This document shows positions 10,135 to 63,410 of a DNA stretch of 64,000 nt, one piece after another. This DNA is from Catajapyx aquilonaris (lineage: Eukaryota): NCBI GenBank assembly GCA_000934665.2, contig KZ538338.1, forward strand, positions 1 to 64,000. The letters run 5' to 3'. The notes under the pieces are model-generated. The model was not told where the DNA came from and did not search any database. It saw nothing but the letters and a program-made list of their open reading frames with translations. Both the position numbers and the translations under genes were made by a program. How positions within the stretch are numbered: the stretch's first letter is position 1; the number at the start of each line of letters is the position of its first letter.

Positions 10135-13100
10135 TTATTTTGGTTCACAAGCTGGCAAGTTGGCCTGTATCAAAAGCCTCCTGAACTCTGCCAAACTCCT
10201 GGCTCTCTCTGGGCCAACCAGGGAGGTCCCAATTATATCAACTGACCTCTTGGCTCGTCCCTTTGCCCTTAGCACCTCTTGCAAACCCAAAGCCTCAGCC
10301 AGATCTTCTGGTTTAGGTGATGGTTTATCTTGCTTGCTGGCTACCATCAATAATGGGACCCCTTCGAGCCTTTCCTCTGCCATAAGTAGCCGGAATTGTT
10401 TAGATGCTGATGGAGCACTGCTCCCGTCTGCAACAAACACCAGTAGATCTACATCTTGGAGGAAGCGGCTCCAGTATGGCTGAACTCCAGCTCCACCTCC
10501 CAGGTCCCAAATGTCTAGGCAAAGTCCTCCCAGGTGCATCCTCACTACATGGAATCCCTGAGTAGGGTTCCAAGGGGATAACTGAGATTCTGAGGTGATG
10601 GAGGGAGAAGGGGACGATTCTGCCTCAGCCAAGGCAGACACTAAGGTGCTCTTTCCACTGCCTGCTGGGCCCAGCACTAAAATTTTTCGCTCACGAGGTT
10701 CTTCTTCTACCTGTAAGCAAGAGAAGGGACAAAATCAAGATTTATGCATTATAAATAAGCCACCCAAATGATGACACACATCTCACAGGCCTCCATTAAG
10801 GTAAGAAAAAAGCCCTTATCTCAAAACAGATTACAGCTTTATGTTCAAAGAGCGCAATCATATGAACATGTACATGACAGTTGTTAACCACATTACATGT
10901 CAGGATGTCATATCTGGGAGACAAATGTAATCTAGCACATAAGTCGAGATTCAATTGTAGTTGTCAGTGGGAATATTTATAAGAACTTTGGGAAATCATC
11001 AGAGCAATAATAATAATACATACATACATACATACACAGATACATTTCCTTCACGGCATATTCCCATCAAGATGGGGTTACCAGATAATAATAAGGATAA
11101 TAATAATAATAATCATTCCCTCAAAGGTTGACCTAACTTCATTTTCAAAAAGTTCCTCTGAATCAGGATAGTGTGAAATTGCAGACACAGGAAGTGCAAC
11201 TCTCAAAATTCAAAATCCATAATCCAAGAGCGGGGTTGAGGAAAAGTTATGGATTGTTTACTTCAGTAACCAGTTTAATGAAAAGTAACTCATTGGAAGC
11301 AATGATGTGAGCCACATTCACTTGTCAGGATGGCTGCTTCCTTTCAGCAGGTTGTTGGAGTACACAATTTATAACATTTATTCTTCCCTTCCCCTTGAAC
11401 TGGACATGGGCAGTCCACCATCCTGTGCAACCATACATAATTTAGCATGGGACACATCCAGCCTTTGACAGTGGCATTTGTCTTTTGAAAGCGATAATGA
11501 CAGCTAGTTAATTTAAGACCTGCAACCATAAGTTAAGTGGGTCAGAAAGGAAGCAAAAGAGAAATTGGTGCACTGCATGTAGTTCATGATCTAAAGGATT
11601 CCTTCAGGCAAATGCTACACTCACACTTAGAATTGATGAAAAAAATGGCCATGATAATATACAGGGTGATCCAACTCTGTGGCACCAACAGTTATTGGAA
11701 AAATCAACAAGCTGCTTGTTTATAAGCAGGTCGTTGCTAAGAGATCAATAAGAGTTACTTTCTGGAGAATCGGGAATAGCACCTGCTGATATTAGGTCCA
11801 ATGCCCATGTAACAATATTAATGAGGGAAAAAAGGATCATCCGTGGGAAACAGGCCTGTTCTGGTGTTCGCTGGAGGGTTTCACATGAGGTCACTAGCTG
11901 CCAAACCAGAGGTCTAATCCGTCGGAACTGGACAGACCCGGGTGTGTCAATAAATAGGCCTTCTGGTCTGTTCATTGTTGGCCGCAGTTGGCGCAACCGA
12001 GACAGGTCAACAGGCAGCGTTGTTTAGTTACCAGCAAATAAAATATTATTGTTACATGGCCATTGGACCTAATATCAGCAGGTGCTATTCCCGATTCTCC
12101 AGAAAGAGCCAGAAAGCATCTCTTAGCAACGACTTGCTTATAAACAAGCAGCTTGCGCGATTTTTTCAATAACTACTGGTGCCATAGAGTTGGATCACCC
12201 TGTATTACACCTCAATGCCATGCACTTGTACTTACTGAGATAGAAAAAATGGCAATGTTTGCATATTAAAATCAGGCTACAGATTTCAAGGAGCAGGCCT
12301 TCTTCCGATTTGCCCTACATCAACAGTAGTTGTGTACAAAAAATGGCAATTAAAAATTCCTCAAGGTATGTGAACTTAGAACCCCTATGAGTGTCCTTAA
12401 ACAAGTACGTAAAGATAATAAATATATACGAGGTGCTACCCAAAACTTCAGATAATTTGTACTGTGCAAACCAGTGGAAGTACGAACTTGTGACTCTAGG
12501 GGGCGCTAGGTGCACCTTTCAGCTATTAGTCTGAAAAATATTGTCTTCAGAGGTGCACATGTTTCCGAGTTTCAGCAGTTATCTTGACACCGTGTTCTTG
12601 TGTTTCCGCGATTTTTCGAAATGGCTGATGTTAGGGAGCAAAGGATTTGTATAAAAGTTTGCCAGCTCAATAAAACTTCGGCTGCAACCCACCGAATGCT
12701 GAACAAGGCTTTTGATGAGCAAGCTGTAAGGCAAGCAATAACATATGAGCAGCTTAACAGCTTCAATAGTGGCGGGCCAAGTTCGCAGCAAAATCAACTC
12801 AATGCTGATCATTTTCTTTGACATTTTAGGAATTGCGCATATGGAGTTTCTCCCTTCTGGTAAAACTGTCAACAGCAATTCATACTGCGATGGTTTGAGA
12901 CGATTTAGGTTAAAATGGCCGGAGATATGGAAGAACAGACACTGGTTGCTGCACCATGGCAATGCGCCTGCACACACCTCACACGTAGTCAGGGACTTCC
13001 TGACGAAAAACAACATGACCACTGACTGTTCCCCACCCTGCCTATTCGCTTGTCCTGGCCCCATGTGATTTCTACTTCTTCCCTAAAATGAAATTTGGGT

Positions 13101-15706
13101 AGAAAAGGAGGCATTTTGCCTCCACTAAAGAGATCTAAGCAAAATCGCAGCAGGTGCTGAACATGCTATGGTTGGCCAATTTTTTTGGGTGCTTCCAAAA
13201 ATTGGAAATTCGCTGGGTATATGTGCCCAAGGTGACAACTTTGAAGGTGGCAGTGGACTTAAAGTAAATATTAATGTTTTTATGAACAAATTCTCGAAAA
13301 TTTTGGGTAGCACCTCGTATAACATAATAGCAATAACAATAATAATAATAACAACAATAATAATACAATGTTTTCATGATATTTTCAATTTGTTATGCAT
13401 GAAGCGTTATATGTGATATAAAAGTATTGCTCATTTGTCACAGATGCAAATGTCATAATGATGATGTATGCATGTGACTCATCAGTTATCAGCTTGAACA
13501 AGTATGAACATTCAATCATTATATAATTCCTCCCTTCATAGGTTCTGACCTATAAATGCTGATGAGAGGTCCAAAGTCATATTGCAAGATCTTGAATGAA
13601 GGAATTAATAAGCCATCTGAATTAGGTCGCAAAGACCCCCATTAGATGAATCATGTGGTAACAACCTTGAAAGCAAATTACCACAGTGTGACATATTGGG
13701 TTACTACTTAACAAGAGTTTAAAAAAAAAATTGCAACTATTGCATCAGCAGTGTTCAGCCTTAGATTTCCACTTAGACTTGGTCAGTAAATTAAATCACA
13801 ACTTGCTACAAATGAAGGTCTTTCAGGGCATCATTTCCAGACATTTCAAAATATGGTACAAGAGAAGTTGCAACAAACAGAATTTCCTAATAAGAGTTTC
13901 AAGCTCCATGTAAAATGTTGACCAAACTTGATAGTATCTCCATCAGGAAATGAACCTTGATTAAATATCACACAGTAAAGCTACTCATTTGCTTCCAAGA
14001 GAGGGCAGGTTAATTATTTAGGTCAATAATTTCTCACTCTTCTGCACACAAGATAATTCCTCCCATACTGACAAAGGACTGCATTTGCAAATAACATTCT
14101 TCCTTAGATGATTCCTTAGATGCAAGTGCTCTTATGGGGATCTGGTGACACTTCTCAGCTCAATAATGATTCTGCGTGGAATTTTCCACCCTCTGATTCC
14201 AACCTGCCTCTGCTTGCTAGCCATTGAGCCATCTCAGCGGCACTTCAGAGGCACTTAGTAGGAAATGACTGCTAACTGCATAGCTGACACTAACATAAGT
14301 GACAAGAAGATTCATGTACAATACTTATGAATAGATATTGTGGAGTGTATTAAGCAGTGTTAGTTTTTGTGCAATGCAAATATCCATGTATCATCCCCAG
14401 GAGTAATATCTGAAGAATTTAAGTCTATGTAACAATTAGCTCTTGGTAACACTTATAGTACTGTACTAATGAAAATATTTGGAGACTACTAATTCAAATT
14501 ACATTTATACAAACCAACACTACACTTCTCATTCCCATAGTCACTTCTTTTTTCCATGCAAAGTTTAGAAGTTTGTAGTTATTTAATAGTTAAAGAAGCC
14601 TCTAAAATTTTCATGTGAAAAATGAAGTGGTACCTTCGTAAGTTCAAATCTACTACGAATTTATCTACTATATCTATCTATCTGTGGTTCAAATCTACTT
14701 GTTAAAGCAACTTGGCCATTATATTGAAATATTGTAGTTATACCACTATTAATTTTTCATAACAGTGGCATAATTAAACAACATAATGCGAGCAAAAATG
14801 AGCTCTATCATAATTCTTTAAAATTGACAAACATTGACAAAGAACATATAAACTTACTTCTACAGAAAGATGCAATTAATTAAGTTTTTCTGACTTTTCA
14901 TCCACAGGTAATAACTTCTGAGCAAGTCAGGCATTTTGAATTTGTAATTTGCTCATAATCCTATGTTCGAGAATTAAAGGCCCATATGCACAGGCGGTTG
15001 ACGGTTTTGGTCTTTGGTCGCGCTGACGCCGCGGACCAATCATTACTCATGTAAACAAACTCAACACTTGTTGATTGGTCCGCAGCGTCAACACGACCAA
15101 AGACCAAAACCATTGACCGCCTGTGTGTATGGGCCTTTATGCTGCTGTGGTGACAACAAGTATTTTATTTATGACTATTAATTTATGTGAAAAAGAACAT
15201 GTCCAACATAAGTTGCACACATCTGCTCTGGTCAATTTAATTACCTTGATTTATTGGTCATCAATGTATTTGTCCCACATTGCAATTCGCCACAAGTGTA
15301 ATGACCCATTTGTTAATTTAAATCAATTTATGTACCTAATCAATATTTGAACAAGTCAAGTCCCATATTTGGACATGGCTTGTTTATGAATGGAATGACA
15401 ATAGTGTCAGTGAATTACTATAAAAAGTTGTGAACCGTACAGAGTTTAATGTGACATTCCATGTTCACTACTGTCATTCAATTCCAAACCAAATCAACGA
15501 CACCCATGTCCCGCAATTCGTCCAGAAAGAGCATGTACCCTGGAAGCCTCGGCGAATCCCTCGTCAACGTTGCTGTCGTGCCTCTTTAGGAAGAAGGACC
15601 TGGCCAGTCGGTATCCCAGTGCGCCCAGGAGCACCCCCGAGCCCAGCACCAGGGCCGTCCTTCCTCCCAGCAACCTCCACCTCTGCCACGACACCTCCCC
15701 AACCAT
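10135..15706 (-). CDS. ARL10: ARF-like small GTPase with N-terminal hydrophobic anchor (ARL9/ARL10-like), ~247 aa, 2 exons
   Basis: Exons 15706-15539 and 10710-10135 join at phase 0 (..EASR|VEEEPRERKILVLGPAGSGKST). G1 GPAGSGKS, G2 PTQGF, G3 WDLGG, G4 SKQD. N-terminal TM-like segment ALVLGSGVLLGALGY. Confidence 0.8.
11662..12202. mobile_element. Tc1/mariner-type MITE with long (~150 bp) imperfect TIRs
   Basis: CAGGGTGATCCAACTCT...AGAGTTGGATCACCCTG, flanked by TA on both sides. Lies in the ARL intron. Confidence 0.85.
12429..13317 (+). mobile_element. internally deleted, degenerate mariner element
   Basis: TIRs CGAGGTGCTACCCAAAA / TTTTGGGTAGCACCTCG with TA TSD. Transposase remnants: N-terminus EQRICIK, LLHHGNAPAHTS (canonical HDNAPAH) and YSLVLAPCDF (canonical YSPDLAP). 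The WVPHEL region is missing and the frame is broken. Confidence 0.92.
14978..15136. mobile_element. PIF/Harbinger-like MITE
   Basis: ~65-bp imperfect TIRs starting AGGCCCATA, flanked by TAA/TTA. Confidence 0.7.
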
Positions 15707-15785
15707 TGTCACTCTCCTCGGACGCCTCCAAATCTTCCCAAAACCACAACAAAAACCGATCTACTTGGCCCAAAAACACGACATG

Positions 15786-16160
15786 AACGCCGCCATCTTG
15801 GGTCGGCTCGGAAGCGCATGCGCACCAACATCTCAAGACGCAGTTTCGCGCCATTTAACCAGGATTGGCTGCATTGACGCCTTGGACCAATCAGCACTCG
15901 TCGTCGCACAGACACGGCACCGCCATGTAGTGAACCCTGTCACGGATGTCACCCAAAATGAAGGCCACACAACAAATTTTAAACCGTAAAATTTAAAAAG
16001 CAGGATCCAACAGCACCCGGCACAGGTGCGTTCCCCCCTCTGAAAATCCGGCGAATTCCGGATAAGCGCAGTGCGTCATCCGGATCCAGCCACACTTCCA
16101 GAGGGACTTCAGAGGGGACCAATCCCCGATCGCCTCCCAGTCCTCTCGTCCAATCAGAGC
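15786..16160. promoter_or_regulatory. candidate bidirectional promoter (ARL10-like / KIAA1191-like)
   Basis: GC/CpG-rich segment with a YY1-like GCCGCCATCTTG (~15789-15800), an NRF1/Ewg-type GCGCATGCGCA (15814-15824) and several CCAAT/ATTGG boxes. A + strand donor CG|GTAAGG at ~16323 suggests a non-coding first exon. Confidence 0.6.
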
Positions 16161-16986
16161 CAGACGGACACGCCTCCTGGGACCCACAGCAGGACCAGTT
16201 TTTGTGGGGGTCTGAAAGAAAATATTTCTTTTCCGCTCGGCTGAAGGGACAGGAAATCAGGAAGCGTCCTGAGAGGAGCCCAGTAGTGGACAGTAGTGGA
16301 CACGGAGGACCTGTTTTGCACGGTAAGGTCGGTCGCCCCCCCCTAGCGTACAGAAGGTCGCATCGTTGCATGTAGAGTGGCCGTGACATTTTGACATTCA
16401 TGCCTGTTGGAAGTGGTGACCTCGAGCTGTGTGAGCCTTACCACGTGGGTAGTTCTTTTTTTATATATAAAAATGGAGGAGCAAAATATATTGCATGTTG
16501 GGGCATATGCAATGAGGAGCATGGGGCATGGTTAGGATTGTTTTTGTGTACCTGAATAGGGCCAAATGGATGGGGTCAGCTGGTTCGAACCGGAATTAGG
16601 GAGTCACTATACCTGGGGGAGTGACGCCGAGAGATTTTAACCTGTCACTCAGGGGGGATTGTGTGCTTTTGGGTTAAGTGGTAACCACCATGCTGACTTC
16701 GCATTTTGAAAAATTCGAAAATTGGGTGGATAGGCCTACATGGCGTTAGATGCAGCGTAACTCTCGCGTTGAGTTGGATGATGCAAGCTTTCAGGCAGCC
16801 TACTGACACACTGACCAGGCTGGTGGTTAATGTGGGCCCCGTTTTAATATTGAGTTAGGTTACAGCAAAATGGGGCTGTGAAATCGCAGGTAAAACGAGG
16901 CCCATACCGTCAAAAGAAGTGTTAGGTGTTGCAACAATGTGGTAATGTTTCAATTTTAAAGTTATTTTCAAATGTTTCATTTTTAA

Positions 16987-17262
16987 CCCTGGAACCGTGC
17001 CGTGCCTACGAGTATTACGGCGACCGTGCCGTGGGGTCTTTTCGGACCCCACCATATTTTAATTTTTATTAATTATTATATAATACTTTTCAATGTATTG
17101 ACTATATACAATCATTCTTTGAACAATGCCTAAAAGGATCGCAAAATAAGCCTGCTCTTCCTGTTATATACTGTAAAAAAATGGCAAAAGTTCATTGTAA
17201 TTATCATTTTAATGCATTTTTTCCCTTGGGATCCGAAAAGACCCCACGGCACGGTTCCAGGG
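16987..17262. mobile_element. piggyBac-like MITE, copy 1
   Basis: TTAA TSD, CCCTGGAACCGTG / CACGGTTCCAGGG termini. Homologous to 32611-32873 in inverted orientation. Confidence 0.85.
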
Positions 17263-18140
17263 TTAAAGATCATTTTTATTAAATGTGGAAGGTAAAATGG
17301 AGCATTGTGGCATATGATGTTCTGTACAGTACAAGGGCGTGTACACTAGTACAAGTTCTTACTACTACAACGCACTTATGGAATGACATTGAAAGTCACA
17401 TTCACTACCATGACGCTACATACTTGAATTTGACACAAGGTGGCTTAGAGGAAGGCATGACAACACGATGTTGTGATCCATCACCAAATCTCAAAGTTAT
17501 GCGTACATCTGTTACATGGTGGTTGTGCATTTCCTTCAATAAATTAATACATATTAATAATTATTGTGGCACTTGCACAGTAAATTTGGTGGGCCAAGTG
17601 TTTGAAGTACCGTACTGTACGCATTTTGCTGTCTTGCCCATAATATGCGGTTCTCCATGAATTTTTGTTGGATTTAACAGAACCTATCTGGAATGGACAG
17701 AAATGGACATCATTTGTCTGTCAGTAACAAAAACCTTGGTATAGAAGAGTGCATGAGGGCCAGCCCCAAACGTGTATGGAACATGTGTTTATTACTGTAC
17801 TGCTATCATCACAGAAATTGTCTGGACACTTGGGGGTAGGCTGATCATTGACAAGACAGTTTCAGGACCTTTTCTGTGCCAATAGTACTTGTAATCCTTT
17901 CTGGCAAGTCAAGGAGCGTGTTAACCAGTGAAACGGAACAGTTCAGTGGCGGTGTAGGAGGGTTGGGGCATGATGTGGAACTCGACCACTCAACGTGGCG
18001 AATGACGAGGCTTTGTGAAACAATTTCAGGATCTGCAATGTGTACCTGACCATTTGATTTCACCTCCCACCGGAAGCAAGGCGTGAGCAAAGGGAGTGCA
18101 GCAGACCATCTCGCCTACCAGCTGCAAACCCAAGGCAAGG

Positions 18141-20737
18141 ATGGGATCGGACGACCGTGGCCTGCCTGGGTTCTCCCTTCCACAGTGGATCCGCCGCCGT
18201 GCATTTGAGAGGTAGGTCCTGTGTTGCTATGGCAGCCACTCTTGTTGACTTGAGATATAAACAGTGTGGGGTTTTTTTTACACACAAGTGACACCCTGCC
18301 TGTGCCGGAAGCTACAGTTTCATCTGAACGCCGCAGACTTTCTGCCAACAGCCAGGTTATCTGGTTGTTTCATCGAGCCAGACAAGGGTAACATTATGTG
18401 TTGCCACATGTAGTGCAGTGAACGGTGTGAACTTAACATGTGGTACTTGCTTACTCTCTGTGGTACTCTTCCGTTTCCAGAAAGCCAGTGTTCGAGATTC
18501 CTGATTTCAGTTATTGTTTGTTCTAACCTACCAACTGTTCTTCCAACCTTTACTGGATTACCCGTAGTGTGGTAGTCCGGAAAATGTCGTACCAACAATC
18601 AACTAAAATCAACAATCAAATAGTGGCGCTCAGGAAACTGAAACGTACCCTCTGTAACTCCTATTGCAGAAGTGTCTCTTGGTAAAAGTAGCCTGTGTTA
18701 TGCCTGTATTCACCAAAAGAACAGTTCCAATTAGAGCCACTTTACCATGAGGCATGGTTGTTTAAAAAAAGCCCTGTTTTCAGTGATGAGGTCCAGTGCC
18801 TATTAAAATGCTTAAGATAAATGACATGTGATAAGGCCTGACTTGTGCATAGTTCAAGTGACCCTTAACATGATTAATGCAATAAGGAATCTGCCTTCTG
18901 ACATGATGTAATGTGCCGCATGTGCCTAGAAATAACTGATACAAGAAATACGTGGGTTTATTGCCCAATTGCCTCAGAAATAGGCTCATTTGTTAAGTGG
19001 AGATCTTGAATTACTCCAAATTGGTTGGTTGGTTGGTAGGAAGGGTTACCCAGCTTGTATGGCTCTGTCTGAGTGGAGCCTTGGCAGCCGGGGGTAGGAG
19101 AGGAAGGTGTGGAATTGCTAGGTAGGGGTGGGTGAGAAGGGTGGGGGAGAGGAGGGCTGGCTCCGGCTGTACTGCAATGCCGGGTCCAACCCAGGGACGG
19201 GGGTGGGATATTCTCCCAAGCACCCCGTCCAACCAAGAAATGCGAGTCAGGTCCGAGGACCGCTCGAGTAGGAGAGTACCGTCGCTGGCGAACCAGCCGG
19301 GATGTATATGAATTACTCCACAAAATAATTCTGTGTACCTGATTCAAATTCACAAATTGGAGCGCAAAAACCTCAAATTACTGCATTGTTTTAGTGGGCT
19401 AGAGGTGCATTTATGCCAGAGGGGTTAGTGCCGTTGCAATGCAGTCACTGTAATTAACACATGACTCAGTTCACTCCCACTATGGCTGATTGAACGAATG
19501 TCTTCACGATCACATTTCAATTGTATCCAGCCCAGTGTAAAAGCACCTCAGGTTAATGTTGGAGTATAGATGCTGGATATGCTCCTCCATGACATGAATT
19601 TTTTGTGTGGAATTTCACAGGATTGTAATTTTTCTCAAAATATTAGTTGAGCCATGTGATTGAACTTGTTCTGAATAGACGTATGTTGAGATTCTCTTTT
19701 TGTTGTAACATAAAAAATTGAAAGTCCCATTTACCACCTCTTGTGAACGATAGTACAGTCATCCACGTGTGGATATGGATAAACATGCATGTCACAATCA
19801 ATTTCCAAGTGTGGGATCTTTTGGTCCAATGCTCTTTGGTATTTTGTAGTGTCAGGCAGGTGTACTTATTTCTAAACTGCAATGCGCTGTCAAGATGTTC
19901 TGAAGTCACCTTTGGTGATCCCTAGCTGAATGCGAGGATGTATATTTCTGGAAATTACTCTTGCTTTAATGTGCTTTGGTTCTGGATTGACCACCATGGT
20001 AATGGAACTATCTTGTGTAACCTTCCACTGACTTTGTGCATGCCTGCAACATTGCACAATTAATTGCTACACACTAATATTGCTGACAACTGTTATTTTC
20101 ACTGCACATGCTTACAATAGTGTAAAATGATTTTTCTCCTCTTCCCTACAGCTATGAGATTGACGACCTGTCATTCTCTCCTCCACTGGACGACGATGCT
20201 TTCCTCCATATGAAACGCCGCTCCGGCACTGGTGCCACAACCCCAACTCGTCGCCCCTCCACTGCTGCTTCTGCTGCCCCAACTGTCCTGGCCTCATCCT
20301 CTGGATCCACTCCTGTTGTTGTTGTAGCTCCCCAACCACCTGCAACCCTGGCGGCTCCACCCACCAGCCCTCTCATCCCACAAAACCCAGAGCAGCCCCT
20401 GCATATACTCCAGCATTTGGAACAGGCCAACCTCATACCCCAGGTGCCACCCAACATCAAGAAAATTGAGCTGCCAAGGTCTCCTGTTGACACTCCCCAG
20501 GCCTCCCCGCAGCCCCCACGTCGTACTGAGAAACATGCTGCCAACCCGTACTTCACTGGAGAGGCTGGCCAGGATCGCCCAGCTGTAGGGAGCCCTGCCT
20601 GGTTGTTCAAGGGGAATTCTAGCAGCTCGGGGGATTCCCCGATGGTCAGGAGTTCCTCTGAAGAAGGGGAGCAGAAGGTGGTTCCCAATCCGTCACAACT
20701 TAGGGAGATGAATGTATTCTCTCCCATGTCTATGTAA
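18141..20737 (+). CDS. KIAA1191: KIAA1191/p33MONOX-like protein, 218 aa, 2 coding exons
   Basis: Exon 18141-18211 (MGSDDRGLPGFSLPQWIRRRAFE, donor AG|GTAGGT) joins exon 20152-20737 (polypyrimidine tract and CAG) at phase 2, in frame. Four colinear motifs resemble human KIAA1191 as I recall it: SLP..RRA..SY..DD, LQHLEQANL, SPVDTPQASP, C-terminal REMNVFSPMSM. Confidence 0.68.
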
Positions 20738-21276
20738 AAAATAATCCCTCAACCTAAGGTGTAAAAGACAAGTCCTGTTGGATACTTACTGCAAACGTTC
20801 CCATTGCATTTTTCTGTTCAAGTTTTCCTCAAGGTCTGTGAATATGAGCACCAAAAATTGTGCCAATGCACAAAAGATGATGAAAACTCATTGACATTTT
20901 GTTACCATGTGCAATTTTTTGTGCTGGTGGATACAGGCCTTAAGGTGTACAGATTTCATTGATCATGTTGTTGAGTTCCCACAAACTGCTGCTGTTTCTC
21001 AAGGCATTCTGCCCACTTTTTAAAGACACTTCTAAATGTTTGATGGAGGAGTAATAAAAAATGTCATAGTTAAAGGTTTACTGCGCAGATGTGTTGCACT
21101 CTATTTTGTCATAATTCATTCATTGTGGTTTCAATTACAAGGTTACGTTATGTCTGGTATAATTCTTTCATTAAGTTCAACCCAGCAGTTATTTGTGTTC
21201 ATACAACCATCCTCAGGCTGGGTTGCACCACTTCTGACCCGTTGTTATGCAATAATGGGTCAACCCACTAAAAATG

Positions 21277-21336
21277 TCAAAATTGAGCGAAGCCCAGGAA
21301 CATAGGTATATGTTCCTGGGCTTCGCTCAATTTTGA
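21277..21336. repeat. perfect 28-bp inverted repeat with 4-nt loop
   Basis: TCAAAATTGAGCGAAGCCCAGGAACATA-ggta-TATGTTCCTGGGCTTCGCTCAATTTTGA. Confidence 0.9.
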
Positions 21337-21581
21337 ACGATCCTACTTAATTCGGTTAAAATCACGCTGGTGAAACCTGCATATTTCTGCCATAAATGAC
21401 AGAAAAGAACACTGAATTAATTTCACAGGTATGACCTTCAAAGCCATTTTTCTCAACCCTTCTCATGTGGGTTGGCTCATTATTGCATAACATCCAATTA
21501 TGCTTCTGAATTATACGACTTGTACATAATTGGTGATTTTTGTGCTACTGTCAGTGATGCTAGTAAGGCTTGACATGAACC

Positions 21582-21770
21582 CCCGCGAGCATAAAGATGG
21601 AGACGGCAGGCCCTTTTTTGACCTTTCTTTATCAGACTCTAATTAATGACTCTCTTTGGAACGAGTTAGCTGCTTCAGGCGTGTGTTTGTGTATTTATGC
21701 CAGTATATTTGATACTGTAATAGCCGAGATTGGCAGAGCAGCCTGCCGTCTCCATCTTTATGCTCGCGGG
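21582..21770. mobile_element. MITE with 29-bp perfect TIRs
   Basis: CCCGCGAGCATAAAGATGGAGACGGCAGG ... CCTGCCGTCTCCATCTTTATGCTCGCGGG. Confidence 0.75.
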
Positions 21771-22561
21771 TGTACCTTCTTGCTTGAAAGATGGGTGTCA
21801 AATCCTCCAAAGACAGGAAGAAAAATGGGAGAAGTGGAAGGGCTTCTCCACTGCATAATGGAGGTTCTGCAAGGTCGTTTCAATTTGGTATCGTGAGAGG
21901 AAGAAAAAACTCAACAGCTTGCAATTAACACTGGTGTGGCCTGTGGAGTTCAGCCCCTCAAATCGCCTATGTCAAATTACATATGCCAGATCACCAGACA
22001 CAAGTACCATTGCTGTGTTGAGCGCTTCATTGCCAGCCTAGAAATAGAACCAATGCAGAGATAGTAGTCTGTGCACAGGAACCCAAACTGCCTTGTAGTT
22101 CGGCCTGAGGGACAGTCTCGAAAGGGCCATTTCCACAAGGCATAGATTTTGTTGTGGTACATGATAAAAGACACCAACACATACGTACCTCAATTACCAC
22201 CATTAGAAATGAAGGAACACGATTAAAGCCAGACATTTTTAATTTCCAGCTGCAGTCTGCCAAACAGGCTTCCCCATTATTTAAAAAGGGGAGTTTGGCA
22301 TCATGGGCTTAACTTGTTAACACTTTTCTGGACCCTCCCCCCATTCATCGTCACTGGTAAAAATTAATTTGGAATGACTGCTCATTTCACAGTACACATT
22401 CTCTCTCTTACACTTTTGGGTCCTCACTTTTTTGGCCAACCTGCCACACTCACTCGATGACACTTGGAAGGAGAACGAGGGGGAGGTCAGGAATTGTGGA
22501 GAGAGATTGTAGTGTTCACTGCACTGATCTGGGTTGGATTCAAGTCTTTTGAGTCTTTAAT

Positions 22562-25500
22562 TTATCCCGACAGGTCGTTGTGATCAAAGAGAGCTTGGTC
22601 ATAGATCTCTGCCCGAACTAGTCGTCCACCAAAATAACGTCCGTTTAGGGCATCTCTCGCTTTTTCTGCTTCTGAAAATGGAACCAAATATAAATATTTT
22701 ATACATATTTTGCGACTAGTTCATTTTTCCACTGCAGCAATTTAAAGAACCTAGGTGCAAACCTACTGTTCACATGGGGGACATTAATCCACACTTAACT
22801 TTCAAATTATTATTTTTCAAAATAAGGGGAGACGGAGTGGCGCCGCGGTAACGTGCGCGCCCACGGATGTTAAGGTCCCGGGTTCGATCCCAACCCGGGG
22901 ACACCCCCTTCATCTCGTGCAGAGTTCAGGGTCACCTCTGGCTTCGTCTCGGGTGGTATTTCCTACAGACTAAACCACCCGGGGGAGTTCACTAAAAATG
23001 GCCACCACGTCAGTCGCACTGCACCTTGCACATCCCCTCCTGTCATCCTGCCCGTGGGCCCGGGCGCTTCGTTCAAGGCTCCAAATGTACGAATTGAAAA
23101 TAAAGGTCCGTGCAAAACACCTTCTGGGTGAGCACTACCCCAACAATTATTATTATTAAAATTAATTATTTTTCAAAATAATTTTTGAGAAATATCAAAA
23201 TTTCACATGAGCCCAATGCCTTTGTGACAACTTCTTCCAGATCCAACTAATGAGACACACGGTATAACCTAACAAAGCACACGAGACCATGTCAGGACTC
23301 TTATTACATTGAGTTACTGCCAGACATCTGTTGCAACCTGTGGTAATGGACCACAACTCATACCTGCACCAGCAGTAAACTCCACGAAGATTTTGACCAC
23401 AACATCGGCATCTGCATCCTCTGATTGCCTCTCCTGGTAGATGATGACCCTATTGACTCCTCCAAACTTGGAGCACTCATCAGTGATCTCCTCTTGCAGA
23501 GATTCATCCACATCTTCAGGGCCCACCATGTTCCTTAGGATCACTACCCGGCTATCACTCTTCCTCATCAACTTCTGCATTACTAAATGCCTTGCTGACT
23601 GGCCTTTGATGCTCATGTTCTCTTGCTGTTGAAGAGTCTGTGGCTCTGCATCCTCCATCAGTTTCTTTTGTAGCTCCTCCTGCTGCTTCTGTGCCTGCTC
23701 TCGAACCTTACAGAGAAAGACACTGGCATCAGATCCTCCATCTTTGACATACTTCTTGCATCAGCATGAGATCTTACCTTCCTGAGAGCCTCCTGCTGCG
23801 GGGTTCCTCCAAGGGCAACCATACTTTCAGCTGCAGCCACTTCTTCTGCCAGGACAACTGACGCTAGTGATGCTGGGGCAACAACCGACACAGGTGGTGC
23901 AACCACCACACCAGATTGTCCTACAACAGGTGCCACTAATCCTGGTGGGGGGATTGGTGCCAATTCGGCTGCCGTCACATTAGGTGGTGACCCCAGGGAA
24001 CCTGTTGGTGAGCCCTGCGATTGTGACGTCCCAAGTTTTGTCAACCCTAAGGCAACAGCATTTGAGGCTACAGCGTCAATGGCCTGTATCTTGGCAGTAA
24101 CAGCAGCAGCGGCAACCGCTGCTGCAGTGGGCATCTGGCTCTGGGCTGTCGCAGGGTTGTCCTTTCGCACCTGGAGCGCGTTTGGAGGGGTGATAGCTTT
24201 ACCAACACGCAGGTATTGACCTCCAAGGTCAAACAGATTCATAGAGGCAATGGCATCTTGTGCTGCCTGCGCAGTCTCGTACTCAATGAAACCGTAGCCT
24301 TTGTGCTTGGACGGAGATGATCCAGCAGCAAGCTTGCAAGACTTGATGCGACCAAATGCCTCGAACACACTGCAAGGTACGACAGAAATGGGGAAGGTGG
24401 GCGGTACTTTCAGTTGTATCTCTAACGTACGCTAAATTATGGTAAACTTCTATCAGTAGAGCTACAGATCTGCCCATGAGTAAGGCTATTGGTGCAATAC
24501 CCGATCTAAAAACATCATGACATACCGTCAAATGGGGTGACGTTGGCCGGTGGGGTGAACTTGGCCACAATTCCAAAAATGCAATTAATAGTTAATATTT
24601 CAGGTAACACGTGTTATAAAAATGAGACTTTCAATCACGTGATGCCATTACGGCAGTGCTTAGCTTGCTGTAGACCAAAAAAATTCACCTGTGCCGACAT
24701 AGGTGAGCAAGGAAATAAAATTAATGTTAAAGGTCATAAGTTTTCTAAGTATTACAAACAAAAATATAACTCATAAAGGTAATCAATAATCGAGAATTTT
24801 AATTACTAATCATCTTCGGAACATGAAGGTGCAGCCACTATTTCCTGCGTTAAAATTCAAGCACCTATATCTTAAAAATCTGAAGAAATATTTGATCAGG
24901 TTTGAACTTGTATCGTTAGCTGGGACTCTACTGAAGCATGCTTGACTACTGCCAGCTCTTTAGTAGCAGAAGAACCTGTGCAAAACAATTAAAATGTAAC
25001 AACTGCACAGGTGTCCCCTATAAGGGACACTTGGCATATCTGGGTTAAGAATGGTTGGAAAAGCAATGTTGCTCAGTTGGACACCTGTCTATCTTGGAAG
25101 TTGGACACTTGTCCCCCTCTTAAGTTGGACACGTGCTACAGCAGTACAATTTTCACATTTACTCTACAATCTACATGTACTCCCATTTTTTTCTAAAACC
25201 TGAGCCATGCTGAGCTCGTCATACATAATTTGTATTCCTATGTAGCATTGTGCATGGAAAAAATATTTTTCTACTCGCCTTATTGGCCAGCCTTGTCCAA
25301 CGCCTACTTAAAAAATTTCACAGTTGTGGGTTAATATCCCGCTACTTATATCTTCGCAAAACTGAAATTTTGGACCAAGTTCACCCCATTTGACAGAAGT
25401 CAAAAGTTAAATAAGGGCAGTTCAGATATATCACATTAATTCAGTACTGCACTTATTGTCGTGGTGGGATGCACCCTTGCAAAATGTGACCCTGAATGCA

Positions 25501-33267: not shown

Positions 33268-33269
33268 CT

Positions 33270-33860: not shown

Positions 33861-33863
33861 AAG

Positions 33864-35095: not shown

Positions 35096-50208
<15,113 letters not shown>

Positions 50209-51315
50209 GGCTAGGTGCTGATGAGTTACTGTCACCTGTCCTTCTTAAAAATTATTCGACCGGTGGCCTGAGCTGGTCATGTCTTTGCCAGTAATCTGAA
50301 ATGCTGAGAATAACACACATTCACACAATGGTTACACTTCAATGCCATACTTGACAAACCATTATCAGAGAGAGAAAAGTAAAATATCACTTCCTTGCCT
50401 CATAAATTCATTCCAAGGTTTCTCACCCTGTTATTGGCTTACTGTTCACATATTCCAAGCCAACATTAGCACCAACAAAGAGCTTCTCCCATAAGCTTCC
50501 TTATTATGGCCACTGGGATAACAAAGTAGCCCCTCATTTCACACGTCCTTTGCATTATGCAGGAGTGTCAAAACATATCTTTATTCCTAACTACTGCATG
50601 TAACATTATTGGTAGACCAAGGAGAGAAGAGCCTAACAATATTGCTTGCAACATTGAAAATACACATCAAGCTGCTCACGCTTGTGCTGAATAAAGGCAA
50701 GACTTTTATCATCAACAACCCTGGGCACACCGAGCAGGCCCATTTTGATGTGCTACACTGCCCTTAAGGCTGAAATGAAAAGGCAGGTCATTAAGCAAAC
50801 ACTAGAATGGCTCCTTGGTCAGCCAGTGTAGCTGCAGTGATTTCTAAGCCTGGATATTTTATTGGCCATGAGAAGAAAGTTTGCAGATCATTTGTTAAGT
50901 CAATGGCAGTTGCATCAATGAATTCAACAGGAACCCTTCCTTCCTTTGTTGGATGAGTTACTGACCCTGGGTACACTCCCCTTGCTTGATGTATTAAACT
51001 AATGCAGGGGGTAGGACCCAATATTGAATCCCCATCTAATCAAGCTTGTGGCTCTGTCTACCACTCTACCTGGACTGAGCAATAATGTTCAAGCATAATA
51101 AATGGGATTAATACTTCAGGTGCTTCCTTCCTGTGCACATGAAACATTGGTGTTGCCTACATTCAAGGTTTAATAAATTGCAATTTATCTTGCCTACTGC
51201 TGCAAAATCGGGGCCTTCCTGTGATACCATTTATATTTGTACTAAGGTCATTTCAATCGTAGAAATATTCGAGACTGTAACGTAATAAAATTTTACACGG
51301 GTTTCATTCTATTAA

Positions 51316-53190: not shown

Positions 53191-53590
53191 TGTTGTTGTT
53201 GTTGTTGTTGTTGTTGCTGTTGTTGTTAATTATTTAGTGTACCCTGTGATGACCCTTATGGGTTCTACAGGGAGATGGCACACCATCATCAGTCTTTTAT
53301 ATAGTTTTCTTCAATTTCCAGTGCAAGGAATCAAGGACATGGCGTAAGCATAGGGATTGGGTGGGTTGGTGGGGGGGNGGGGGGGGGGGTGTGAGAGAGA
53401 GATGGACATTGGTGCAAGTGCAATGTCTGAAAAGGGGTCATGTGTTGTTCCCCAGGAGGTTAGGTTGCCAGACACCTCCAAGGCAGGGGGTCAGAGGATG
53501 CAGGTAAAATGGAACTCCCAGGCGGGGATTGAACCTGGGACCTTTCACTCAGCAAGCCGACACATTACCAACTCGGCCACCGCACATCCC
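53191..53590 (-). mobile_element. tRNA-derived SINE family D, copy 1
   Basis: Minus-strand A box TGGCCGAGTTGG, B box GGTTCAATCCC, (CAA)n tail. Homologous to 55040-55308. Adjacent (ATT)n microsatellite at 53591-53663. Confidence 0.75.
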
Positions 53591-53603
53591 ATTATTATTA
53601 TTA

Positions 53604-53665
<62 letters not shown>

Positions 53666-53963
53666 TTTGGCAGGTGAATGCAGTCACAGTAAACATTTGC
53701 TTTCAAGACCATTTATTCTGCAAGAATGTTAGGTTGTTGTCCTACTAATGACAGGTGAGACTATTACCACTCCCTTGGATGAGTTTGTTATAAGTGAGAC
53801 TGTACGTAACTGCTCATATATGGGCATGTCTCTGTGACTGCACATCAACATGTGCATGTAGCCTTGCCAGATCAACCTCAGTGCTATCTGACGCCACATC
53901 CCTAGATTTCTAGAGATGCCATCACACATAGAGACTTGTCAGTGTCTAAATCGGTCTAAAGAT

Positions 53964-55744: not shown

Positions 55745-58700
55745 TCACACACAAGTCTCCTTATTGGTCCAACCAGGAGATGCGTCTCCATCACCCCCAC
55801 CCCCACCTGCCACGACCCTTCCCCCTCCCCCCTTCCTCCGAGGTCTGTGGTGTTGTTGGTGACTGTGACCTCTGCGGTGACCTCTGTAGAGTTGTCCCCC
55901 GATTGGGGGTACGTCAGTCTCAGAAGCCCCATCTGACGCTGGGTGGTTGTGCCTGTGTTGATGGTGGTGGTGGTGACTGGGCGACTCTCCTTCAGAGTGA
56001 CGTTCTGAGCGAAGCCTCTGCTTCTCGAAAAACCGGCGAGCAATTCCTGATTGGTAAGGGTTGTAGAAGGACTCAGGGACGGACTCACAAGACAGATAGC
56101 CATTGCTAGCTTCCAGTAGTTGTGGCTGAGGAAGAGGAGCCTCTGATTTATCATCGTCTGCATCTGTAGTGGTGTGTGATGGCAATGCTGGTAATGGTGG
56201 TGCTTGCTTCTGTGGTGCTACAACTGGAAAAAATCAAGGATAAGCTATATTCATCCTTTCTAATGTCCTTGCAAAATATTTGCATTGTCAAAATATAATA
56301 ATTTGGTCTTATCTTACAATTCCTCTGCTAAACAATAACACTTACCCATCTCAACACCATCTGGAGTATCTGGCTGGGTGAGTAGTGTCCTGAATGTTTC
56401 ATCTCCACCCTCCTCCCTCCTGCCAGACCTTCCTCTGCACAGCCTGGACATTGCTTTCCTAATGTCCTTCCTCATGCAGCACCAGGCAGCCACCACCCAA
56501 CCTCCAAGAAATCCAGATGTTACGCAGAACACCACAGGGAACAAATCAGCTAAGTCACGCCATGACGGAACCAATAAAGCAGATGGACACACTGATGCCA
56601 CTCCACTCAGCCATGCTACCCAAAAAAGAACTGCTTGTATTTCAAGCGCCTTCAGGCACCATGTTGGGGTCTTGGTCATATCTGGTACTAAGCTTGAAGT
56701 GGATGAGCGCAAAGAGGTGCTGTCTGGACTCCACGTTGATCCTGAATTAAGCATTTTTTGAACATTTATGGCTCGATGTGCCAAACCTGCATGTAGGCAT
56801 GTCAACAGGCAAAGTATAGCTAATGGGAGCCACACAGCACCAGGCCACACTGATGGACGTAAGAAGCAGAAAGTTCCAGACGAGTACTCGGGTAAATGAA
56901 CAGCTCCAGTTAAGCCAACTGCCAACAATCCAGGTCCCCATCCAAGCAAGTAGAGCTGCACTAATCGTTGCATGCGTCCAGGTTTTGGTCCCAATCCAAT
57001 GTCATCTTCATCTGGTGTCACATTGCCAAGGCGCTTTCGGTTTTCGCGTGAAACTTTACCCTTCAAGCAGTGTATTGCAAGCAATATCCACAGCAGGCTA
57101 CATAATGTAAGGTAATGCAGAGCAAGACCTAACAGCCCGCAGGGTAAGCGCTGTTGTACTGGAACAGTCCCAAAGCAAAATGCAGTCTGAAGAACAGTAA
57201 TGGACAGCCATCCATTAATTAAGGCATGCCGTAAGCGTCTTGAGAGTCCAGATGATTTCCAAGCCCATATCTGGGTCAATATGGCTGTCACAAGCAACGT
57301 TGCACACATGGCACTTCCAACATATACACCTGGATGTAATACTACTGGCATTGCTGTCATGTTTGGTTTGCTAACCAAGACTGGTGCAAGCACAGTATAA
57401 TATCCAAGCTTCCAACATTGAAACTGTACACGAGTTGGTGCCACATCTATAAGCCTGCATCGGCTTTGCTCACCAGTCACCCAACCAGCATGTGAATCCC
57501 ATCTAGCAACTTCTTTGGCAGCACCATTAGTCCGCAGTGTCACCAATACGCCATCTTTGAGGTCCACATCAGCACCAGTGGAGCAGCCAACTACACCTGA
57601 TACACGATGAGTCCCATCTGGCAATCCCGGAAAGAGCGCACCATCTGCAAAAGCAGCCAGCACCAACTTGGCATCTTCTGGAATTAGTGCTGGAATGCGT
57701 TCTGGTGCAATTCGTTCCACAACATGTTCTAATACCACTCGATCTGAAACTTGTTCGGATGGAAGTCCTTTAGAAGAGAGTTCTTTGGAAATAGGCTCAG
57801 TAAGAACCTTAGCTAAATTGTGGCTTGGTACAACAGCTGGAACCCTTATCCATGCCTCAACTTGTTCATTAGCAGCCAATGACGGCACCCCTCTCAGCAT
57901 CTCGGAAGTACAGTGAAACAATCGATCTGGAACACGTGCTGGTGGAAGTGACAGCCAAACACATGAAACAGCCACCCCACCATTTACAACATCCAAAACC
58001 AGTTGGGATCCATGATGCTTAAAACTTGGTATAGCCTTTGCAACTATCTCAGCTGTAGAAATGAGTCGTGAACAAGCATTATCTTGAAGCTGTGCTTTCT
58101 TCAGATCCAACTCCATAACAGATGTTGACAGCTGCTCAAGCAGGTCTGTAATTGCAGCTGCAACTGCTTCCTCTTCTGGGCCACCACTGCCAGTGAGGGC
58201 AGTTGCCAGGCGTAAGCCTGCCCTTGATGCAAGAGCCAATTCTTCCCAACCATGCAAGTCACTGGATGCATCATGAAGCTGACGTGCAGCAGCACCAAGG
58301 AGACTGGGACTCACATGTCCAGGACTATGGAGGTTAAAAGATCAAAACAGTTAGTAAAACAACTGACATGATTCATGCGAAAGCAACAAGACAATGAAGT
58401 TATTGTCCTGAAATTACCTTTCAGTATGTGCCTGAGCCATCTGATGCAATAGCCTAGCTGTTTCCCTTTCATATGCGCAGTCCTCCATCATGGGTGCTTC
58501 CCAATTCCCCATTCCAGAACACTGTCTGGAAGCCCAGGATGGCTGTCCACCTCTCACGGAACTCTGTACTTGGCATGGAAGTTTTGCCTGAACTCCTCCA
58601 ACAACTTCAGGCCATTCATAGTGACCTCTGCCACCACTTGTACTGCTTCTCATGCAGTAAGGCACATCTGGGCTGAGCACCACTAGAGACACTTGTCGGC

Positions 58701-60424
58701 TGGTATTCCCACGACTTGAACTTGCGACACACATCCATTCACCACTGTGGCTGGAATCCAGCACACGTATGATCAAACTTGTCAGCGATTCATCTGAGTT
58801 TCTCTTGGCCTCAACTGTAACTTGACTCATCCCTGACACTTGCTCTAGTGGTGCTTCAGGTGATTTTCTCCATCCCCAAGTGACCCCAACATCATCTTCA
58901 GTTGACACTTTGCAGGAAATTCTTAAAGAGTCACCAGCAAATACAACTTGTGTTCCGGATGGCCGCAATTGGAACACTGGAAGCTGCAATGGCCAGCGAC
59001 AATGGAGTGTGTCTGATTGTAGGCGCTTCAGAGAAGTACCAGCTAAGGGCAGGGGCAGTTCACAGCGCCCTCGAGGAGAGAGCTCTCCACGTACCAACCA
59101 AGCAAGCTCACAGTCACATATCAAGGGGTTGTTGCTTAGATCTCTGTAATAAAATGCCACACCAACTGTGAATTTCTCATATTTGGTCCATCAATCGATA
59201 TGATTCTAGACATTCTTGAATGGACCTTGAGCGGCCACAAGGCACTTCAGGATTGAATGACCTCAGAGTGAACTCAACATGTTCTGTTCTACCATGTGCA
59301 CTACCCTTATGAGTAATGAAAAAGAAAACTTATATAATGGATTCTTGGTGATGGAAAATTCCACCACCAGTTAAAATGCAATTTCATTAATGAGAAAGGA
59401 AATAATTTCATATTAAGCTCACTTACAATGCTTGCAGGGCTACAAGTGGTGCAAACGTTGCCTCTTCCAAGCGGCTCAGACGATTGTGAGTCAATTTACT
59501 AAATGGGAAATAAATATTACTAATTGGAGAAAATACTGCAGAAATGTCCTAAAATTACTTACAGTCGTTGTAGATGTGTCAAGCCTGCCCAAGTCTGGTT
59601 GCTCAACACACTCAGGTGATTTCCAGAGAGGTCCCTGTCATATGCAATATTGTGTATTAGAGCAAATACTCATGCAATTGACTCATTACAACTTACAAGT
59701 GATGAAGGTTTCCCAATGCAGTCAAAGCACTACCTTCTATGTGACTCAGATTGTTGTTGGCCAAAACTCTGAAAAGATTACACATATAATTACCCTTTCT
59801 GCAATTGGAATATATGCATGTGATGCACTCACAATTTCTGTAACTTTGGCAGAAAATCCAGTTGGCCTTTCTTCAGTGTTGTTAGCTCATTGCCAGACAA
59901 ATCCCTGAAACAATTATTATTATTATTATCATCATCCATGTGATGTAGGTGACAAGACCCATCAGGACCAATGATTTGATACTATGAAAATTACTGTTAT
60001 GGCTAATTGTATAAATTGGAAAATGACATATTATGCATCTGCTTCATAAGAAGATTTTCCTCTCGATATGTGTTCAACAACTGGGCCTTAGTGAACCCAA
60101 ACCATCAGTATGTTACCATGCAAATATTTCATGCCTTTCTGCTACACCTTGGCACAAACATGAAATAACAACTTACAGAAGAATAGTGTCATTTGGGAAC
60201 TGAGTCTGGTTGAGCACTGCAATATCCTTCAGTGGTGAGATGTCTGGTGGGCACCTGACTCTCACTCCTGAGTCACCCCCACGAATTTTCACTGCAGAGC
60301 AGCCACACTGCTGTGGACACTGTGGAGATGAATACGCCTCCTGCTGGTCAGCCCACACTAGGGCCAGGAGGAGGAGAAGCAACCACCATGTGTAGTGGTG
60401 CAGGGCGGGAGTGGACCGGCTCAT
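55745..60424 (-). CDS. ADGRA3: adhesion GPCR subfamily A (ADGRA2/3, GPR124/125-like), ~1239 aa, 8 coding exons
   Basis: Exons 60424-60177 (signal peptide, LRRNT), four 72-nt phase-2 LRR exons (59904-59833, 59768-59697, 59634-59563, 59498-59427), 59143-58418 (LRRCT NPLICDC, Ig, HRM), 58324-56346 (GAIN, 7TM with LHYLTLCSLLW and YLLGWG), 56223-55745 ending in the PDZ ligand ETCV. Confidence 0.92.
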
Positions 60425-60526
60425 TATGCAGCCTCCTCCAAACCTATACGAACAAAACCATGAATTTTTATTACAACTATTCACACTAATGTACAAAAAA
60501 TTGCAACAATGAAGAACTAAACCTAA

Positions 60527-60721
60527 AGCCAGGTTTACATGTGAGCGATTTGACGAGTGAATTCTTCGCTGAGCGATAACATCGCTGAGTAACCAGTATT
60601 GTTTTAGGCGAAAATCGATTGTTACTTTCACCTCAAACAATATTGGTTACTTGGGTTACTCAGCTATGTTACCTTTCAGCAAAGACTTTGCTCGTCAAAT
60701 CACTCACATGTAAACGCAGCT
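60527..60721. mobile_element. PIF/Harbinger-like MITE
   Basis: AGCCAGGTTTACATGTGAGCGATTTGACGAG / CTCGTCAAATCACTCACATGTAAACGCAGCT, with TAA/TTA flanks. Confidence 0.75.
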
Positions 60722-62576: not shown

Positions 62577-63410
62577 TCAGTTTGTCTCCATTTTTGCTTC
62601 TGGGGCATTTTTATCTTTCATCAGCTTGTACTTGGAAAATTCTCCTTCCATTTGCTTGAAGCGATTGTACTTCTTTTTGAGTTGTGTTGTAGTCTCTTGA
62701 TAGTAGTTTCGTGGGTCCATAGACATGACCTAGGAATAAAAAATAAACAAATGTCATGAATTAAGCCTATTTCACAAGTGGACCTTTGTAATGTTAAGCT
62801 TTTTTTCACAACACTCGTTATGTCATTTTTCGCCGCCACATGGCAAATTGCAGCGACCGAGGCAAGATCTGGCTTGCTGGAAGCTTGTCGCTCTGCCGCT
62901 TACCCAGCAGAGACAAAAAAATTATGTCACAAGTGGTGTAAAAAAAACTTCGCTTTCTAATCGTGCATTACGAACGCTGCGATGCACATTGCTGAAATAG
63001 GCTTTATGCAACCTTTTCGGAGAGAAAGAAGCCCCACTGCTTATGAGTGGCAACAAAATACTCAGGAGAGAAAGCGGGTTTAAAACTTCTGCAATTTCAG
63101 ATTTACCTTAAAATTCGTCCCATGCTTGAGCAGCAAAGGAACCAAATTGGAAATCTGCTCCTTTGTAAGTGATAAGTGCTTCTTAAATGAATCTTTCCTG
63201 GTAGCTGCAACCTCTTCCAAGCGCTTAACGACTTCAGAACTAACTGAGGATACTTCTGGGCTGCTCTGGTCCACATTCATTTTCTTTGGTCGCATGAGAT
63301 CTCTTGCAGTTGGGATGGGAATGGCCATGTTTGGATCATAGGCAAGGCCCATGGACTTCATGTTAGTTCGGATGGATTTCTTGGGGTCCCATGCTTTACT
63401 CACTGCCTCA
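62577..63410 (-). CDS. NOP16: nucleolar protein 16, last two coding exons (5' part missing)
   Basis: Exons 63410-63107 (KAWDPKKSIRTNMKSMGLAYDPNMAIP..KHGTNFK) and 62729-62577 (VMSMDPRNYYQETTTQLKKK). AATAAA overlaps the TGA stop. Confidence 0.9.
62763..63005. mobile_element. short-TIR MITE in the NOP16 intron
   Basis: AAGCCTATTTCA ... TGAAATAGGCTT inverted termini in a TTAA/TTTA context, with repeated TCACAAGTGG. Confidence 0.5.

Follow-up and report, generated by a model that had tools for sequence, protein, structure and literature searches.

The 64,000-nucleotide stretch of Catajapyx aquilonaris DNA analysed here (contig KZ538338.1, positions 1–64,000; hereafter the window) probably holds the inherited arthropod copy of an old gene neighbourhood that survives in human at 5q35.2. 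This neighbourhood comprises NOP16, HIGD2A, an ARL9/10-type GTPase and, probably, a partner gene transcribed divergently from the GTPase. In the window the block spans positions 10135–63410 (~53 kb). An original prediction, made from the sequence alone, had proposed a KIAA1191-ARL10-HIGD2A-NOP16 block clustered since the protostome-deuterostome split; it was right in substance for three of these genes, and two of its gene labels are unproven.

Ten protein-coding genes were recognised from an inventory of open reading frames (ORFs) and their Pfam matches, namely a rhodopsin-type receptor, two cuticle genes and the seven genes of the block. The inventory took in 160 stop-to-stop ORFs of at least 85 residues, 22 of them exon-like, and all 160 were scanned against Pfam; genes built solely from short exons could escape it. 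The block runs in the order Arf-family GTPase (−), KIAA1191-like gene (+), PUF60 (−), HIGD2A (+), SLK/STK10 (−), an adhesion-type G protein-coupled receptor (GPCR; −) and NOP16 (−). The seven genes had been predicted with these positions, order and orientation, and Pfam matches, chains of solved structures and exon reading agreed throughout. The identities of HIGD2A, NOP16, SLK/STK10 and PUF60 are firm, whereas the labels ARL10, KIAA1191 and ADGRA fall short of proof.

The block itself is not new but already catalogued. Robert et al. 2022 (BMC Genomics; PMC8851819, supplementary file 4) list in their Syntenic Density Database a multi-species block, number 8989, of the class 'Planulozoa novel', with at least 36 rows from at least nine cnidarian, ambulacrarian and lophotrochozoan species (Lingula, Acanthaster, Nematostella, Saccoglossus, Mizuhopecten, Ptychodera, Exaiptasia, Lottia and Strongylocentrotus). 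It comprises NOP16, the HIGD2A orthogroup, THEGL, a GTPase and unnamed genes, joined in some species by TMEM127 or FRA10AC1, and none of the rows listed comes from an arthropod or a vertebrate. The GTPase is annotated as 'signal recognition particle receptor beta', and the orthogroup to which it belongs in both hemichordates, OG0008686, also includes human and mouse ARL9. Gene numbers are consecutive for HIGD2A, the GTPase and an unnamed gene in Ptychodera, and for HIGD2A, NOP16 and THEGL in the scallop (PMC8851819).

That study compared 49 genomes, seven arthropods among them, and its rule for a block was at least three orthologues, with gaps of five other genes at the most (PMC8851819). The window lies within this rule, with two genes between the GTPase and HIGD2A and two more between HIGD2A and NOP16. 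NOP16, HIGD2A, an Arf-like GTPase (in block 8989 from the orthogroup with human ARL9) and an unnamed or orphan gene adjoining the GTPase are common to both, whereas PUF60, SLK and the GPCR are extra in the window; THEGL, TMEM127 and FRA10AC1 were not found in it. Since block 8989 is dated to the cnidarian-bilaterian ancestor, the neighbourhood is older than had been proposed. Clustering since the protostome-deuterostome split is thereby upheld for NOP16, HIGD2A and the ARL9/10-type GTPase, whereas for KIAA1191 it is argued from position and weak similarity.

Mammals provide the named counterpart. An ordered cattle gene list reads ARL10, NOP16, HIGD2A, CLTB, FAF2, and one human 5q35.2 interval includes NOP16, FAF2, SIMC1, CLTB and SNCB. 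The human order ARL10-NOP16-HIGD2A-CLTB is matched by the cattle list, and we take human KIAA1191 to adjoin ARL10 divergently at 5q35.2. With KIAA1191 so placed, the human cluster and the window have the same three or four families close together, the GTPase being divergent from its small partner. They differ in that NOP16 and HIGD2A are direct neighbours in mammals but lie 27.6 kb apart in the window, where two genes separate them and HIGD2A faces PUF60. This pairing of HIGD2A with PUF60 instead of NOP16 had been predicted, and strands and gene order confirm it. Neither CLTB nor FAF2 was found in the window by Pfam scans of ORFs.

Within the block, the tightest arrangement is that of the GTPase and its KIAA1191-like neighbour. 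Two sequencing runs were used to examine it: X5, of unrecorded kind, which contains spliced contigs, and X1, a DNA run. The three exons of the KIAA1191-like gene are joined in a single 1328-letter X5 contig, the joined form is absent from X1, and the second of the two joints is the intron that had been predicted beforehand from the sequence. The transcript begins at or before 16112 (+) and the GTPase coding region starts at 15706 (−), so that the two genes stand 5'-5' on opposite strands. The head-to-head pair of the original prediction is therefore genuine and closer than it had seemed, with a spacer of ~405 bp as against start codons 2.4 kb apart.

The spacer has a GC content of 0.53 and a CpG observed/expected ratio of 1.07. 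The window as a whole has values of 0.44 and 0.50, and the two introns have 0.40. To judge from this composition, the two genes may share an unmethylated, bidirectional promoter. The region upstream of HIGD2A is similar (GC 0.54, CpG observed/expected 0.77), and PUF60 is transcribed in the opposite direction from ~4 kb away. CpG is depleted across the window (0.50) yet not at these two divergent promoter regions (1.07 and 0.77), a pattern that suggests gene-body or genome-wide DNA methylation in Catajapyx aquilonaris.

Conserved gene pairs are reported to be enriched in 5'-5' orientation and in spacers below 1 kb (Irimia et al. 2012, PMC3514665). The divergent pair of the window resembles pairs given there, such as HSPE1-HSPD1, in having a 5'-5' arrangement, a spacer below 1 kb and unrelated genes of housekeeping type; it differs in that promoter sharing and co-expression are here putative. 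The shared regulatory constraint that had been suggested for the block is plausible for this pair, with its short CpG-rich spacer. For the block as a whole, in which each gap contains two other genes, it is hypothetical.

The KIAA1191-like gene is real: it is expressed in spliced form, and related proteins form a family in insects. It encodes 218 amino acids (coding region 18141–20737). Searched alone against 1.84 billion representative proteins, the protein had one relative, P0001 (2.8e-6), and a profile built from these two sequences recovered 515 proteins at E ≤ 1. All the named ones among the 120 listed are from insects; they go under uncharacterized, hypothetical or unrelated names, and no precomputed Pfam domain is given for any of them. 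The consensus of the insect family agrees with the window protein at both its start and its end, and the first coding exon matches two metagenome loci. A single-sequence search with an exon of the KIAA1191-like gene gave nothing at E 0.001 (1392 candidates). The arthropod family is disordered, ~220–330 residues long, and has the N-terminus MGS...SLPQW and the C-terminus ...PSELREMNFWSPTSM.

The link from this family to KIAA1191 is less direct. The window protein has no Pfam match at E ≤ 10 and no usable match in the protein atlas. Of its relatives, one among 82 matched the P33MONOX family (PF15302), namely P0032 with 15.9 bits and an E-value of 0.012, and none did among 47 further relatives or pieces. 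This match is collinear to both C-termini (residues 186–322 of 324 against 145–289 of 291), and the three nearest named atlas clusters of P0032 are all P33MONOX, at scores of 0.75–0.77, which lie below the 0.9 bar and serve as a lead only; atlas and Pfam evidence concern the same protein, which was picked for its Pfam match. We consider it about an even chance that the partner gene is the KIAA1191/P33MONOX orthologue, and position weighs as much as sequence in this judgement. Of the KIAA1191-like gene originally claimed at 18141–20737, the gene itself is real, whereas its P33MONOX link is weak, one sub-threshold match in 129 scans. A metagenome scan with the insect family matched 221 stretches, from which 13 loci were confirmed, the longest of 10.2 kb. 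No Arf, HIG1 or Nop16 gene was found in the flanks of three insect-derived loci, L001, L002 and L004 (tblastn; Pfam scans of 54 ORFs).

The GTPase model has two exons and 247 amino acids with one terminal stop. An X5 contig overlaps exon 2 (10009–10572); no RNA joint spanning the intron occurs among the X5 joints, and exon 1 stays a predicted exon. In this predicted exon, hydropathy reaches a maximum of 1.61 over residues 12–30, a borderline value from a hydropathy profile. Five basic residues follow within positions 33–45, and residue 2 is Val, not Gly. The G3 motif reads WDLGGG when aligned to ARL3, with Gly in place of the catalytic Gln that follows GG in Arf proteins. The nearest solved chains are ARL3 (4.8e-18, 68.8 bits), then ARL1 and ARL2, all at ~69 bits. 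These scores are far below orthologue level, so the GTPase is the orthologue of none of the three.

These features recall Arl10, which is described as metazoan-specific, typically with an N-terminal transmembrane region, and probably derived from the Arl2/3 clade; a vertebrate duplication of Arl10 gave rise to Arl9 and Arl10 (PMC8358228). Human ARL10 is directed to mitochondria by its 76 N-terminal residues, which include a transmembrane segment and a basic stretch, and the catalytic glutamine is missing in both ARL10 (S132) and ARL9 (S151) (10.1101/2023.03.01.530598). The window GTPase is like the Arl10 of these two sources in its missing catalytic Gln and its relatives on the ARL2/ARL3 side, and the N-terminus encoded by its predicted exon 1, borderline hydrophobic, followed by basic residues and lacking Gly-2, would resemble theirs. 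The 15 Arl10 rows listed from the ARF family survey table include no ecdysozoan (PMC8358228). Thus the ARL10-like label holds for membership of the Arf family and for Arl10-type features, and membership of the ARL9/10 clade is putative.

Two further observations concern the same protein. At the small-GTPase NKxD site it reads SKQD, as does the Nematostella Arl10 in a published supplement when compared by eye; with GGG for the Arf GGQ and SKQD for NKxD, it may be questioned whether guanine nucleotides are bound in the usual way. The SR-beta identity (signal recognition particle receptor beta), which is the annotation in the published table, was rejected for the window GTPase, since SRPRB was neither among the 15 families matched at E ≤ 0.01 nor among the best 60 solved chains. 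Coordinates of all features of the block are collected in Table 1.

Table 1. Positions in the window of the genes, exons and candidate promoter region of the block.
Feature	Position	Strand	Evidence
Arl10-like GTPase exon 2 (G domain and stop codon)	10135–10710	−	Pfam Arf 6.7e-23; acceptor AG before 10710
Arl10-like GTPase exon 1 (56 residues; predicted)	15539–15706	−	ATG at 15706; donor GT 15538–15537
Candidate divergent promoter region, GTPase/KIAA1191-like gene	15707–16111		Between GTPase ATG and 5' end of X5 transcript
KIAA1191-like gene, exon of 5' untranslated region (UTR)	16112–16321	+	X5 contig, joined 16321>18029, GT..AG
KIAA1191-like gene, exon with start codon at 18141	18029–18211	+	X5 joint 18209>20150 (cut +2), GT..AG
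KIAA1191-like gene, last exon	20152–21086	+	Coding sequence to 20737; 3' UTR to at least 21086
PUF60 homologue	21931–29724	−	RRM_1 domains; PUF60 chains 8.9e-61
HIGD2A exon 1	33864–34032	+	ATG at 33864; donor GT 34033–34034
HIGD2A exon 2 (HIG1 domain and stop codon)	34779–34957	+	HIG_1_N 1.1e-18; acceptor AG 34777–34778
SLK/STK10-type kinase	38390–50244	−	Pkinase exons and two PKK domains
Adhesion-type GPCR, leucine-rich repeat (LRR) flank and immunoglobulin (Ig) parts (ADGRA-like)	56314–60646	−	Ig domains; weak match to the seven-transmembrane (7TM) part of ADGRL3
NOP16 last exon with stop codon	62577–62729	−	Conserved NYYQ stretch
NOP16 middle exon	63107–63410	−	Pfam Nop16 1.5e-10; splice sites read

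HIGD2A and NOP16, the other two members of the trio, are identified by direct comparison with human proteins. The two-exon HIGD2A model has 115 residues and matches human HIGD2A at 1.3e-16 (63.5 bits) and HIGD1A at 9.4e-7 (32.3 bits) among solved chains. Its alignment with the human protein carries Q-x3-R-x-R-x3-Q, which we take to be the mark of type 2 HIG1 proteins. NOP16 scores 42 bits against Pfam Nop16 (cut-off 25) and matches the human NOP16 chain 8fkp_SZ at 4.1e-7; its first exon was not found up to the window end (64000), and a run of N occupies 63764–63827.

The same three families might have come close together simply by random shuffling on a conserved chromosome, a reading we consider very unlikely. 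The STK10/SLK, ARL10/ARL9 and HIGD2A families all belong to linkage group 11 (Simakov et al. 2013), which agrees with the remark in the original prediction that SLK, ADGRA and ARL9 genes map to one paralogon, and the order and partners in the window are unlike those in human, with HIGD2A opposite PUF60 and not NOP16. We estimated chance by a free shuffle of 15,000 genes and by a shuffle within an 800-gene chromosome, with 5000 human runs assumed. Finding three named genes in a seven-gene span has a probability of 4e-7 under the free shuffle and 1.4e-4 within the chromosome, and finding four has a probability of 1.4e-10 and 9.4e-7, respectively; the within-chromosome shuffle expects ~0.7 triples and 0.005 quadruples per genome. 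However, the same trio adjoins in nine other species, from four phyla plus cnidarians, so that no new coincidence is needed and chance is excluded for it, and the fourth gene, if counted, brings in the lower of the within-chromosome probabilities. A long-range regulatory block, in which enhancers of a developmental gene such as the GPCR or SLK, lying within or beyond the small housekeeping genes, hold these as bystanders, is the second main cause of conserved pairs according to Irimia et al. 2012 (PMC3514665), and large genes with big introns do sit between HIGD2A and NOP16. Yet the block 8989 rows listed for other species include neither SLK nor the GPCR (PMC8851819), SLK belongs in tick, centipede and spider to a separate old block with TM2D2 and STX18, and the scallop HIGD2A and NOP16 are numbered consecutively with no large gene numbered between them; we regard this explanation as most improbable.

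A more serious contender, with a chance somewhat below even, is that three genes only were inherited together and that the neighbour of the GTPase belongs to an arthropod family unrelated to KIAA1191/P33MONOX, which occupies the same position by chance. The lack of any Pfam match for the window protein at E 10 fits this, as does the single P33MONOX match, at E 0.012 and below cut-off, which is about what chance would give for 129 proteins scanned; the uncharacterized, hypothetical or unrelated names of the listed family members and atlas scores under 0.9 point the same way. What speaks against it is that this sole match is collinear to the C-termini of protein and profile and that the atlas clusters of the same protein, P0032, are all P33MONOX, that human KIAA1191 is taken to lie divergently next to ARL10, and that several phyla have unnamed genes adjoining the GTPase of block 8989. 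We hold to the inherited neighbourhood, with the partner gene as a probable member.

Several results weigh against this interpretation. The window taken by itself leaves room for chance with three genes, because ~0.7 triples are expected, and arthropod retention is not general, since none of the seven arthropods of the published study appears among the block 8989 rows listed. Placement of the GTPase in the ARL9/10 clade is putative, and a single-sequence search with it gave no relative at E 0.001 (1350 candidates). For the partner gene, the P33MONOX gathering score of 27 bits was reached in none of the 129 scans, and three insect-derived contigs have no Arf gene within 2–7 kb of the partner's last exon, flanks that are too short to decide synteny. 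Co-expression of the pair is putative; X5 depth is high for the partner and low for the GTPase, and contig depth cannot rank genes.

On the preferred interpretation, a neighbourhood of unrelated genes would predate the bilaterians and persist in human as the 5q35.2 cluster. The Catajapyx lineage would have loosened it, with PUF60 coming between the GTPase pair and HIGD2A, and SLK and the GPCR between HIGD2A and NOP16. These intervening genes would belong to the same ancestral linkage group; the linkage group 11 placement is consistent with SLK and the GPCR drifting in from the same chromosome. The tightest part would be the GTPase and its partner, transcribed apart from the ~405-bp CpG-rich spacer. 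Selection against breaks likely kept this pair, because a break would cut a promoter that we infer to serve both genes. The looser links of HIGD2A and NOP16 may reflect the slow neutral decay of an old order, and perhaps nothing more.

Other arthropods have SLK in a different old block. Block 7764 ('Bilateria novel'; PMC8851819) unites the SLK orthogroup with TM2D2, STX18, SMYD5 and MAK16 in Ixodes, Strigamia and Parasteatoda. Block 7764 and the window both have the SLK/STK10 orthogroup in arthropods, whereas in the window SLK stands between HIGD2A and the GPCR, and Pfam scans found none of TM2D2, STX18, SMYD5 and MAK16 there, so that SLK has changed neighbours in the Catajapyx lineage. The GPCR has LRR-flank cysteine patterns and a seven-helix part with a weak match to ADGRL3 (0.0036), and no Pfam 7tm match was obtained in ORF scans. 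The ADGRA label proposed for it is fair on the LRR-flank and Ig parts, whereas the weak 7TM match leaves it without proof.

PUF60 lies tail-to-tail with the KIAA1191-like gene and is divergent from HIGD2A, and two X5 joints fall within it (22671>23364 and 23704>23776, with CT..AC ends). It contains a 64-base direct repeat, at 26948–27011 and 27175–27238, the copies being 89% alike and 227 bases apart. The repeat copies the 3' end of an exon plus its donor site, and both copies are coding; it may be a partial exon duplication or an alternative-exon pair.

Past the block, two Ala/Pro/Gly-rich cuticle genes (Pfam Cuticle_3) at 6397–7338 (+) and 8204–8860 (−) converge between the GTPase and a rhodopsin-type receptor gene at 3207–5454 (+). 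By these cuticle genes the intron-bearing animal DNA of the window is recognisable as arthropod. The best solved relative of the receptor is the prolactin-releasing peptide receptor (3.7e-7), in line with the NPY/PRLH-type receptor that had been suggested. The 138 ORFs that were not exon-like yielded just three matches: a mariner transposase relic (12742–13065), an extra kinase exon and a sub-threshold match of a low-complexity ORF. The last of these, to TMEM154, is spurious and arises from a trinucleotide microsatellite. Long microsatellites of this type lie at 39900–39970, 43700–43980 and 53560–53680 and translate as runs of N, I or Y. Mariner-type transposase relics extend over 12579–13082, in the GTPase intron (Transposase_1, 5.3e-7), and over 37375–37722, the second read by eye. 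Word depths of 10^3–10^5 in the DNA run X1 mark 11134–12467, 16470–17803, 21139–21805 and 22473–23139 as high-copy repeats.

A full-text search, which did not cover supplements, found no publication that pairs NOP16 and HIGD2A with 'synteny' or 'bidirectional', and the publications naming at least three of the four genes were copy-number or association gene lists; a publication on a 5q35 deletion names all four. Within that same scope, an arthropod copy of the block, an explicit link to human 5q35.2 and the putative ~405-bp shared promoter were not found in print. The window extends a catalogued pre-bilaterian block to an arthropod and connects it with the human cluster at 5q35.2; with hundreds of such blocks already on record, the advance is incremental. 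In the group to which arthropods belong, half of the blocks that first arose in the bilaterian ancestor had disappeared (PMC8851819).

Deeply conserved neighbourhoods of unrelated genes are used as a guide to shared regulation and to the orthology of fast-evolving genes. We tentatively suggest, at somewhat less than an even chance, that the arthropod 'uncharacterized' family is the positional orthologue of KIAA1191/P33MONOX and has shared a promoter with Arl10, beside HIGD2A, since before the protostome-deuterostome split. Human ARL10 has reportedly been localised of late to mitochondria and peroxisomes, and P33MONOX is said to have been found recently to increase in brown fat along with thermogenic capacity. 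If the suggestion is true, Arl10 and P33MONOX would be a co-regulated functional pair at mitochondria, with HIGD2A, a respiratory-chain assembly factor, nearby, and Arl10 would survive in at least one arthropod lineage. With a short, CpG-rich putative promoter between two divergent genes that are both poorly understood, the window offers a testable case; if the pairing is ancient, an arthropod family of orphan proteins would gain its name from position, and a joint function of the two genes would be suggested.

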